Both the position numbers and the translations under genes were made by a program. A stretch of DNA of 10,787 bases from Escherichia coli. Its GTDB lineage: Bacteria > Pseudomonadota > Gammaproteobacteria > Enterobacterales > Enterobacteriaceae. Within the stretch, counting starts at the first letter, position 1. Each line of letters starts with the position of its first letter. Location: NCBI RefSeq assembly GCF_003334815.1, contig NZ_QOWO01000060.1, one strand, 5' to 3'. Below, one piece after another: positions 1,097-1,713 of this stretch. Under the pieces are notes generated by a model, which saw only the letters and a program-made list of their open reading frames with translations, had not been told where the DNA came from and searched no databases.

Positions 1097-1437
1097 GTAT
1101 GAAATCCTTGTAATGTGAATAAATGAGAGGGAGTAAAGGTCGGGAGCTGGCAACATCACGTTCATCACTGACCGTGATGACCCGGTAATATCAGGGATGA
1201 ATGATATTCGGCTGAAATTCCGGACAGCCGTACGCGTAACCGTTCCGGTCACAGACGGATGGCCAGATGCCATTGCCTGTATACTCAGTCTGCACAGACT
1301 GATTTCTCCGGGACGGTAAATCAGACGGGTACACCAGGCGCACAGGTCATCATCAGAAATGGAACGACACCCCGGCAGCGCCTCCGGGGCGTCGGGTGAT
1401 TCTGGTGCCTGAATCACGCCTTCAGGGACATGCTGCA

Positions 1438-1713
1438 TCAGCGCAGGCTCTCCAGCAGCGTTTCTGCCATTACCCACAATGCGCGGTTGAGCTTAATATC
1501 GGTGTCGATGTTGTGAATGGCACGGGTGTGGATACGTTTTCCTTTTGCACTGCGGCCGGAAATCCCGCCTTTCAGCATATTCTCCTGGATGGTCTGATAA
1601 GTACTCCACAGGTCCTTACCGTAATCCTCCCGGCGTCGTGGCGTCAGAATGTCGGCGGTGGTGACGGGCCGATGTTCGTCACCATACCCTGTCCGGAGGT
1701 TGCCACCCCGAGG
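1438..1713 (-). pseudogene. C-terminal remnant of an unidentified island gene, out of frame with the Ag43 fragment upstream
   Basis: Minus-strand frame reads ...REDYGKDLWSTYQTIQENMLKGGISGRSAKGKRIHTRAIHNIDTDIKLNRALWVMAETLLESLR then TGA at 1440..1438; it is closed by a stop at 1716..1714 and has no start codon. The stop overlaps ATG 1438..1436 of the next open frame in a TGATG arrangement. I cannot name the family from memory. Confidence 0.3.

Follow-up and report, generated by a model that had tools for sequence, protein, structure and literature searches.

A probable two-part gene scar ahead of the KlcA-type antirestriction gene in a CP4-type genomic island of Escherichia coli

The closest described relatives of the locus studied here are the genomic islands CP4-57, CP4-6 and CP4-44 of Escherichia coli K-12. 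The contents of islands of this type include Ag43 (flu), the DUF932 proteins YfjQ and YafZ, YfjX and the RadC-like protease YfjY (currently named LfgA and LfgB; PMC10846083), YpjJ, and a toxin-antitoxin pair of the CbeA/CbtA type. Their downstream gene order is the same as in our locus, i.e., an antirestriction gene followed by a RadC/JAB gene and then, in related genomes, by DUF987, CbeA and CbtA. A further point of comparison is provided by the anti-defence leading regions described for plasmids (PMC11541004), to which we return in connection with the small gene that forms part of the region.

We analyzed a stretch of 10,787 nucleotides of E. coli DNA (contig NZ_QOWO01000060.1 of assembly GCF_003334815.1), referred to below as the window, and specifically the interval between its Ag43 fragment and its antirestriction gene. 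A preceding sequence-only reading had interpreted this interval, placed at 1097 to 1713, as the decayed remains of small genes that normally precede the antirestriction gene, and this interpretation holds in its main point: intact islands carry at the same place a DUF932 gene followed by a gene for a protein of 81 amino acids (aa). We conclude, with a probability of about 0.9, that a CP4-type genomic island carries here a two-part scar, consisting of a DUF932 gene cut by a deletion and a frameshifted copy of the small gene. As far as the window is concerned, this is ordinary decay of already annotated genes, and its annotation is settled as a truncated DUF932 gene plus a frameshifted small gene, with no long antirestriction protein and no new element. 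The wider interest lies in the family to which the small gene belongs, which is conserved, cysteine-rich, unstudied and without a known fold, and which is found amid early-acting genes of clinically important conjugative plasmids.

The antirestriction gene and the deletion junction

In this part of the window, the minus strand carries all of the genes. Read 5' to 3', they are the Ag43 passenger fragment, the remnant region, the antirestriction gene and the RadC/JAB gene (622..131, minus strand). The antirestriction gene (623..1096, minus strand) is intact and encodes a KlcA/ArdB-type protein of 157 aa, with its ATG at 1096 and its stop at 623..625, so that the first base upstream of the ATG is 1097. 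It possesses a Shine-Dalgarno motif of its own, AAGGA at 1109..1105, 8 nt ahead of the ATG, and is apparently translated from these signals. A coding sequence (CDS) of 474 nt that begins at this same ATG is annotated at the position by PGAP, and a promoter scan yielded no promoter-like sites. The Pfam domain PF03230 (E=1e-36) covers residues 62-157 of the 157-aa protein, corresponding to residues 176-271 of the 271-aa conceptual fusion discussed below; the domain sets in 61 residues past ATG 1096 and does not need the upstream extension. The antirestriction gene stands downstream as a gene in its own right and is not the terminal part of a longer protein.

The Ag43 segment (1687..3241, minus strand) is a fragment of an Ag43/Cah autotransporter passenger domain that has neither the 5' end of the gene nor the 3' part encoding the beta-barrel. 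It is 96.4% identical (blastn) to nt 147-1703 of the 2847-nt Ag43 CDS in an island with more of its genes preserved (L001), and matches the NCBIfam model auto_Ag43 with E=5e-278 over profile positions 50-568 of 948. PGAP describes the fragment in the near-identical strain 52F4 as a partial 'AIDA repeat-containing protein'. Its open frame crosses the junction with the neighboring DUF932 sequence and ends at a TGA at 1646..1644.

In L001 the genes follow each other in the order Ag43, DUF905 (3118..3313, frameshifted there), DUF932 (819 nt), 341 unannotated bases, antirestriction, JAB/RadC, DUF987, YeeU-type antitoxin/CbeA, CbtA toxin and DUF5983. Alignment of the window with this locus by blastn gives two segments: 3241..1684 corresponds to L001 347..1903 (96.4% identity) and 1686..1000 corresponds to L001 4001..4687 (100%). 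The two segments overlap by 3 nt, TAT (1684..1686, minus strand), which are common to the Ag43 side and the DUF932 side, and this indicates that about 2.1 kb were deleted via a 3-bp microhomology. The deletion removed the 3' part of Ag43, the DUF905 gene and nt 1-570 of DUF932. Consequently, the limit of the remnant region, proposed earlier at 1713, has to be moved to the boundary between Ag43 and DUF932 at 1686/1684. Genes known from CP4 islands had also been suggested for the interval; this proved correct for DUF932, which occupies 1438..1686, and incorrect for DUF905/YkfF, which falls wholly inside the deleted segment, as well as for YeeR, since annotation of the intact islands examined shows no YeeR gene there. 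DUF932, the small gene and the spacer together fill the whole of 1097..1686.

Window positions 1000..1800 have matches in 4452 of 5426 complete E. coli genomes, and among the complete genomes listed only two, H1 and H2, have matches that cross the junction. The remaining listed matches begin at query base 115, i.e., window position 1686, many of them at 100% identity, and many E. coli genomes contain intact islands in which the whole of 1000..1686 recurs without a difference.

The DUF932 remnant (1438..1686, minus strand) consists of codons 191-272 (YGDEHRPV...ETLLESLR) and the stop TGA at 1440..1438; that is, 82 of the 272 codons are left, without the 5' part or a start codon. The remnant is 100% identical to L001 4001..4249, the 3' end of the annotated 819-nt CDS, and its coding part, 1441..1686, equals the last 246 coding nt of the intact gene. 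Its descent from a DUF932 gene is demonstrated by DNA that is 100% identical to one. The intact 272-aa protein matches the Pfam family PF06067 at residues 37-261 (E=3e-51); the full domain of 227 positions, present in the intact protein of about 272 aa, is absent from the remnant, where only residues 191-272 are left, and on its own the remnant matched no NCBIfam model. The same remnant is annotated by PGAP in strain 52F4 as a pseudogene, 'DUF932 domain-containing protein, incomplete, missing N-terminus', and at the protein level it is 65% identical to the C-terminus of K-12 YfjQ. The gene was cut by a deletion rather than eroded.

The small gene and its open extension

The interval between DUF932 and the antirestriction gene is left without any annotation by PGAP in most genomes and is assigned a 'hypothetical protein' in its 337-bp copies. 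Two E. coli copies (L003 and L006) carry here a 246-nt CDS, with the products WP_001164966.1 and WP_000680587.1, whose first base is the last one of the DUF932 stop codon and which ends about 93 nt before the antirestriction ATG. The intact 81-aa product is MQHVPEGVIQAPESPDAPEALPGCRSISDDDLCAWCTRLLYRPGEISLCRLSTGNGIWPSVCDRNGYAYGCPEFQPNIIHP. In these intact E. coli islands, DUF932, the 81-aa gene and the 157-aa antirestriction gene are separate, and no intact homologue was found that spans 623..1438 as one longer protein, the finding that would have contradicted a reading of the interval as gene remnants.

The window has at the same position (1191..1438, minus strand; DNA alignment with the two sequences above) a frameshifted pseudogene of this unnamed protein with four conserved cysteines. 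A GGAG Shine-Dalgarno-like motif is located at 1453..1450, ahead of its ATG. The junction with the preceding gene is as previously described, a TGATG overlap at 1440..1436, where the TGA at 1440..1438 ends the DUF932 frame (...NRALWVMAETLLESLR / ...ALWVMAETLLESLR) and the ATG at 1438..1436 starts the small gene with MQHVPEGV.... Codons 1-52 are read in the starting frame; codons 53-81 (TGNGIWPSVCDRNGYAYGCPEFQPNIIHP) and the stop TGA at 1193..1191 are in the -1 frame. The cause is a duplication of the dinucleotide TA, which yields TATA at 1280..1283 (minus strand) and changes GAGTACAGG to GAGTATACAGG in the alignment, a +2 lesion after codon 52 that puts the C-terminal half of the protein, including W58, P59 and Cys71, out of frame. 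Thus no single frame of the window copy encodes the protein found in L003 and L006, and the single open frame of about 80-87 codons typical of the family is split by TATA 1283..1280. Apart from the TA and a further A discussed below, the window copy differs from the intact protein by one substitution, L40I; its two halves otherwise match residues 1-52 and 53-81 of WP_001164966.1 and WP_000680587.1. The N-terminal half of the core motif (RSISDDDLCxWCxxLxYRPGExSLC, with C33, C36 and C49) is present as CRSISDDDLCAWCTRLIYRPGEISLC in the starting frame, and the C-terminal half (W58, P59, D63, G66, Y67 and C71) as GIWPSVCDRNGYAYGCP, solely in the -1 frame. The small gene in the window is therefore nearly intact rather than heavily degenerate. 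The short peptides noticed earlier in other frames, one of which (...TEYTGNGIWPSVCDRNGYAYGCPEFQPNIIHP*) is read in the -1 frame within an open reading frame (ORF) at 1191..1343 (minus strand), are indeed there; they had been recognized as nothing in particular, and turn out to be the two halves of one annotated 81-aa protein split by the TA duplication.

The small gene is followed by a spacer (1097..1190, minus strand), read from the sequence and conserved in intact E. coli islands, which leads to the antirestriction gene and which in Klebsiella and Mixta has a length of 16 nt only. In the window the spacer contains an extra A (+1) at 1178 (minus strand), 13 nt past the stop of the small gene, which changes GGGTCTCACGG to GGGTCATCACGG in the alignment. 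This A is present in every copy with the TA duplication examined (the window, L001 and L018) and in no other copy. The two insertions, +2 at the TATA and +1 at 1178, together return the reading to the frame of the antirestriction gene, and this is the origin of the long open frame that had been pointed out upstream of that gene: as was reported, the antirestriction frame stays open to ATG 1438, which lies 342 nt or 114 codons above ATG 1096, and further to a GTG at 1477 (ORF 623..1477, minus strand, 284 aa). The 114 codons are made up of 52 real codons of the small gene, 35 codons that read it out of frame and 27 spacer codons, the chance of stop-free reading being roughly 0.2 for the stretch of 35 codons and roughly 0.2 for that of 27. 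In the intact alleles the small gene is already in the frame of the antirestriction gene, starting 339 nt upstream of its ATG, and 31 spacer codons are open. We infer that the two indels produced the open extension incidentally and that neither of the two remnants makes a working protein.

The frameshift is a real feature of the DNA and not a sequencing error, since it is seen in many genomes: a 50-mer specific to the TA allele occurs at 1782 places in 1571 of the 5426 complete E. coli genomes (~29%); strain JJ1886 is an example of a carrier. For comparison, a 48-mer lacking the TA insertion has 2328 occurrences in 1812 genomes. The TA allele is conserved at 99% identity or more in 1562 of the 1571 genomes, and the whole 340 bp are at least 99% identical in 1545 records. 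Such near-invariance is as expected if the allele arose in one recent event and spread by descent and island transfer. That PGAP leaves the TA allele unannotated is explained by the absence of a family model for the small protein.

The TA duplication is not the only lesion of this gene. Other E. coli copies have a -2 at about codon 19 (L015), an 83-bp deletion within the small gene (L017), two in-frame deletions that remove the CxxC (L004), a change of W58 to a stop (L005), or, in addition to the TA duplication, a further -2 that brings three stops into the extension (L018). Compared as sequences, these lesions, at least five in number, are independent. Decay that recurs in this way is consistent with a gene whose product is no longer required after the island has settled in the chromosome.

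Alternative readings of the interval

The combined effect of the two indels makes it necessary to consider whether the TA allele encodes a genuine antirestriction protein of 271 aa, N-terminally extended from ATG 1438, for which the +2 and the +1 were selected together. Conceptually, such a protein would be a fusion of 52 small-protein residues, carrying the CxxC...C half of the cysteine motif, with a 62-residue linker and a KlcA-type protein. The frame is open all the way from 1438, or from GTG 1477, to 623; the two insertions co-occur in 3 of 3 TA-duplication copies examined; the allele is widespread, at 29% of complete genomes; and some gene callers do report partial products that start from this ATG at contig ends (P0027 and P0031), one of them with a PF03230 hit. 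The composition of the linker argues against this idea, in that 35 of its 62 residues come from out-of-frame reading of a conserved gene and the rest from a spacer that is open in intact alleles too, each with the chance of about 0.2 given above. Moreover, the antirestriction gene has retained its own AAGGA and ATG, PGAP annotation contains no such product, and in L018 the three stops show the open extension to be dispensable there. The exact 271- and 284-aa sequences are absent from a collection of 15 billion proteins, which is weak evidence as a difference of one residue would hide them. The allele is near-invariant, at 99% identity or more in 1562 of 1571 genomes, which fits one recent event passed on by descent and leaves no selection signal to be read. 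We consider an extended protein very unlikely, if the least improbable of the alternatives weighed here.

A different possibility is that the 340-bp interval is noncoding and controls the antirestriction gene as a structured RNA leader or small RNA. This would agree with the blank left by PGAP in most genomes, with a G+C-rich hairpin followed by a T-rich tail at 1394..1365, and with a weak tendency of the 344-nt stretch to fold slightly better than its shuffles (z = -2.2). Yet no Rfam family was found on 900..1900, even at E<=1, and terminator-like sites are not in excess of shuffled sequences (2, overlapping each other, versus 0.9 +/- 1.0). Conservation across genera is at the level of the protein, where invariant cysteines combined with variation at third codon positions are indicative of coding, and the hairpin falls in the least conserved, N-terminal segment of that protein. 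An RNA element ranks below the extended protein in our assessment. Lowest of all, and hardly credible, is a scheme in which the full small protein is still made from the TA allele by programmed ribosomal frameshifting or transcriptional slippage at the TATA, the shift being regulatory. The perfect preservation of the C-terminal half in the -1 frame and the wide occurrence of the allele could be cited in its favor; however, a preserved downstream half is what one expects of a recent lesion in 340 bp that are at least 99% identical in 1545 records. The site, CUG AGU AUA CAG GCA, contains neither an X XXY YYZ slippery heptamer nor a homopolymer run, and the protein is encoded in a single frame, with no TA insertion, in other genera as well as in many copies from E. 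coli. Lacking a slippery heptamer, and with intact alleles that need no shift, the site is an unlikely one for programmed frameshifting.

The small-protein family and its possible role

Judging from its conservation, the small gene is a real gene. A search of 5.8 billion protein clusters yielded 184 homologues at E<=0.01, and full-length relatives in Enterobacter, Citrobacter, Klebsiella, Yersinia, Salmonella and Mixta, mostly 82-87 aa in length, are 52-65% identical to the E. coli protein. The columns M1, P5, C33, C36, Y41, R42, P43, G44, E45, S47 and C49 are invariant and C71 is nearly so, the N-terminal segment being the least conserved part. When genera are compared, differences at third codon positions are about 1.5 to 2.5 times as frequent as at first or second positions. 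The gene order DUF932, small gene, Antirestrict and RadC, together with the 1-nt overlap of stop and start, is kept in Yersinia, Klebsiella and Mixta; the overlap reads TGATG in the window, L003, L006, L010 and L011 and TAATG in L013. In the intact pair this arrangement, which had earlier been remarked upon as typical of translational coupling, would fit translation of the small gene coupled to that of DUF932.

A profile search of 1.84 billion representatives extended the family to 310 sequences at E<=0.001, 82 of them at E<=1e-10, and showed it to be widespread in Proteobacteria (the 310 being cluster representatives). The four cysteines are conserved in at least 90% of these. The shared core of about 55 residues (SISDDDLCAxCxxLxYxPGExSxC...WP...DxDGY...C) is found alone or at either end of longer proteins with otherwise unknown parts: when 29 longer members were compared with Pfam, DUF6876 was matched once, DUF3846 once and nothing else, and a 328-aa protein of a Comamonas plasmid, which has the module at its C-terminus, had no Pfam match. 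The distant members mostly have series of small ORFs with no Pfam hit as neighbors, and these surroundings were uninformative.

Family libraries offer no home for the protein. Neither the peptides nor the repaired 81-aa protein matched a family in Pfam, NCBIfam, PHROGs or PADLOC, and for the intact protein no Pfam family appeared even at E<=10. One library match, Osc7112_2153, was dismissed as being at chance level (E=0.087). The name 'Antirestriction protein' is attached to some UniProt entries and to many AFDB50 members of the family; no PF03230 match was obtained among the family members tested, so the label is without domain support, and this domain encompasses neither the small protein nor the 114-codon extension.

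Structure prediction by AlphaFold2 was unusable with an alignment of 34 enterobacterial sequences (pLDDT 55.6) and confident with a deeper alignment of 81 sequences (mean pLDDT 88.3, pTM 0.73). A Foldseek search of the latter model against the PDB gave no hit below E=9, and the only profile match against PDB sequences, an alcohol dehydrogenase, was rejected at E=2.5; neither Foldseek nor the profile search thus produced a solved structure resembling the model. Searched with the model, AFDB50 returned family members only. The literature on DUF932, antirestriction, the leading region, CP4 islands and lfgA/lfgB yielded nothing on the small protein. From the core and its CxxC...C...C cysteines, the ancestral protein was probably compact, with a core of about 55 residues, and zinc-binding. 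No homologue of the small gene exists in the CP4-57 island of K-12, where the pseudogene ypjI ahead of yfjX is unrelated; the family may lack a K-12 gene name for this reason.

Homologues are abundant on plasmids, tblastn finding them on 1170 plasmids, of which 1128 are conjugative. In two IncL/M-type plasmids that we examined, one of them of pOXA-48 size, the homologue is flanked by an Hha-like gene and a DUF1380 gene, a KlcA-type antirestriction gene follows about 1 kb downstream, and mobA is a few kb away; on the plasmid of pOXA-48 size, ssb lies between the homologue and the antirestriction gene. This mobA/oriT neighborhood of the pOXA-48 type resembles the anti-defence leading regions as they are described in PMC11541004, the searchable text of which returned no occurrence of 'DUF932'. 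On both plasmids the small-gene homologue is not beside DUF932, and an obligate partnership of the two is therefore not supported. The plasmid homologue differs from the window copy in both respects, the former not being coupled to DUF932 and the latter being chromosomal and broken.

The occurrence of the family alongside antirestriction KlcA, ssb, RadC and the IncL/M mobA/oriT region leads us to guess at a role in early establishment. Our best guess for the intact protein, drawn from gene neighborhood and cysteine pattern, is that it would assist the establishment of a newly transferred element, perhaps through binding to a host factor and blocking it. The gene would then become dispensable once the island is fixed in the chromosome, leading to its repeated decay in E. 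coli. We offer only tentatively, as a possibility with the odds against it, the notion that the intact small gene represents an unstudied family serving mobile-element establishment or the countering of host defences, and that its decay would follow from a task required solely on arrival in a new host. In a pOXA-48-type RefSeq record, the CDS annotated at the position of the homologue is in another frame than the conserved small gene.

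Lesions of the small gene and a hairpin within it

Damage to the 81-codon cysteine-rich gene is not confined to the TA duplication that breaks the window copy. At the position corresponding to window 1191..1438, at least five further independent lesions were found among the E. coli comparison loci (L004, L005, L015, L017 and L018), and these comprise a -2 frameshift in L015, an 83-bp deletion in L017, a pair of in-frame deletions with loss of the CxxC motif in L004, a change of W58 to a stop codon in L005, and, in L018, the TA duplication combined with a -2 lesion. In another E. 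coli locus, L016, the small gene is intact and yet carries no PGAP annotation. The 5' part of the gene (codons 15-25) contains an 11-bp G+C-rich hairpin followed by a T-rich tail, at window 1394..1365 on the minus strand. The number of sites combining a hairpin with a T-rich tail in this manner does not exceed the expectation from shuffling, and in other genera the protein is least conserved over the segment that carries the hairpin.

Annotation and distribution of the protein family

In AFDB/UniProt, the name "Antirestriction protein" is attached to many entries of the small-protein family (e.g., Q1RDD9 and A0AAI9H368). The E. coli small protein matched no Pfam family, including PF03230, the Antirestrict domain of the neighboring gene. 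The name may have been taken over from that neighboring gene, or it may stem from ORFs that were called as fusions on the frameshift allele. Annotation also differs among the plasmid homologues. The pOXA-48-size IncL/M plasmid L007 (NZ_CP068920.1) carries an intact homologue at approximately 4941..5177, with a GTG start (VTTLHIREIPTDGAPPICAGRSISDDDLCASCQHLDYRPGHLSAC...), and the RefSeq CDS at 4975..5190 (WP_004206914.1, MERRLSVQAAQ...) does not share its frame; in the related plasmid L008 the conserved frame is the annotated one. The pOXA-48-type annotation of the homologue is probably in the wrong frame.

The cysteine-rich module is a movable domain that is found outside Enterobacterales as well, since the Comamonas sp. 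C11 plasmid NZ_CP101744.1 (L009, 3170..4156) encodes a 328-aa protein in which the module is C-terminal (...KSISDDDLCASCGHCNYRPGDMSSCSKDWPGYQDMDGYVKVC...). No Pfam family was matched by the 270-residue N-terminal part of this protein.

Other ORFs and insertion sequence debris in the window

The window has a mosaic structure, built from island and IS debris. An IS110-family transposase on the minus strand (5980..6966) is divided between two ORFs, 5980..6402 and 6469..6966, and is therefore interrupted between 6402 and 6469 by a frameshift or internal stop. It is flanked by two cysteine-rich ORFs on the plus strand, one encoding 130 aa (5578..5970) and the other 136 aa (7134..7544), neither of which has an NCBIfam match; by eye they resemble paralogues, sharing the pattern ...C..CG..L......PWFEH... 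and a C-terminal CxxC pair. A further stretch in three pieces, 8350..9207 (+), 9548..9715 (+) and 9859..10689 (-), includes an ISL3-like transposase fragment that has an IS21-like N-terminal match, a phosphotriesterase-related ORF of 276 aa that scores well under the NCBIfam cut-off, and a short ORF that by eye resembles a C-terminal fragment of gamma-glutamyltranspeptidase.
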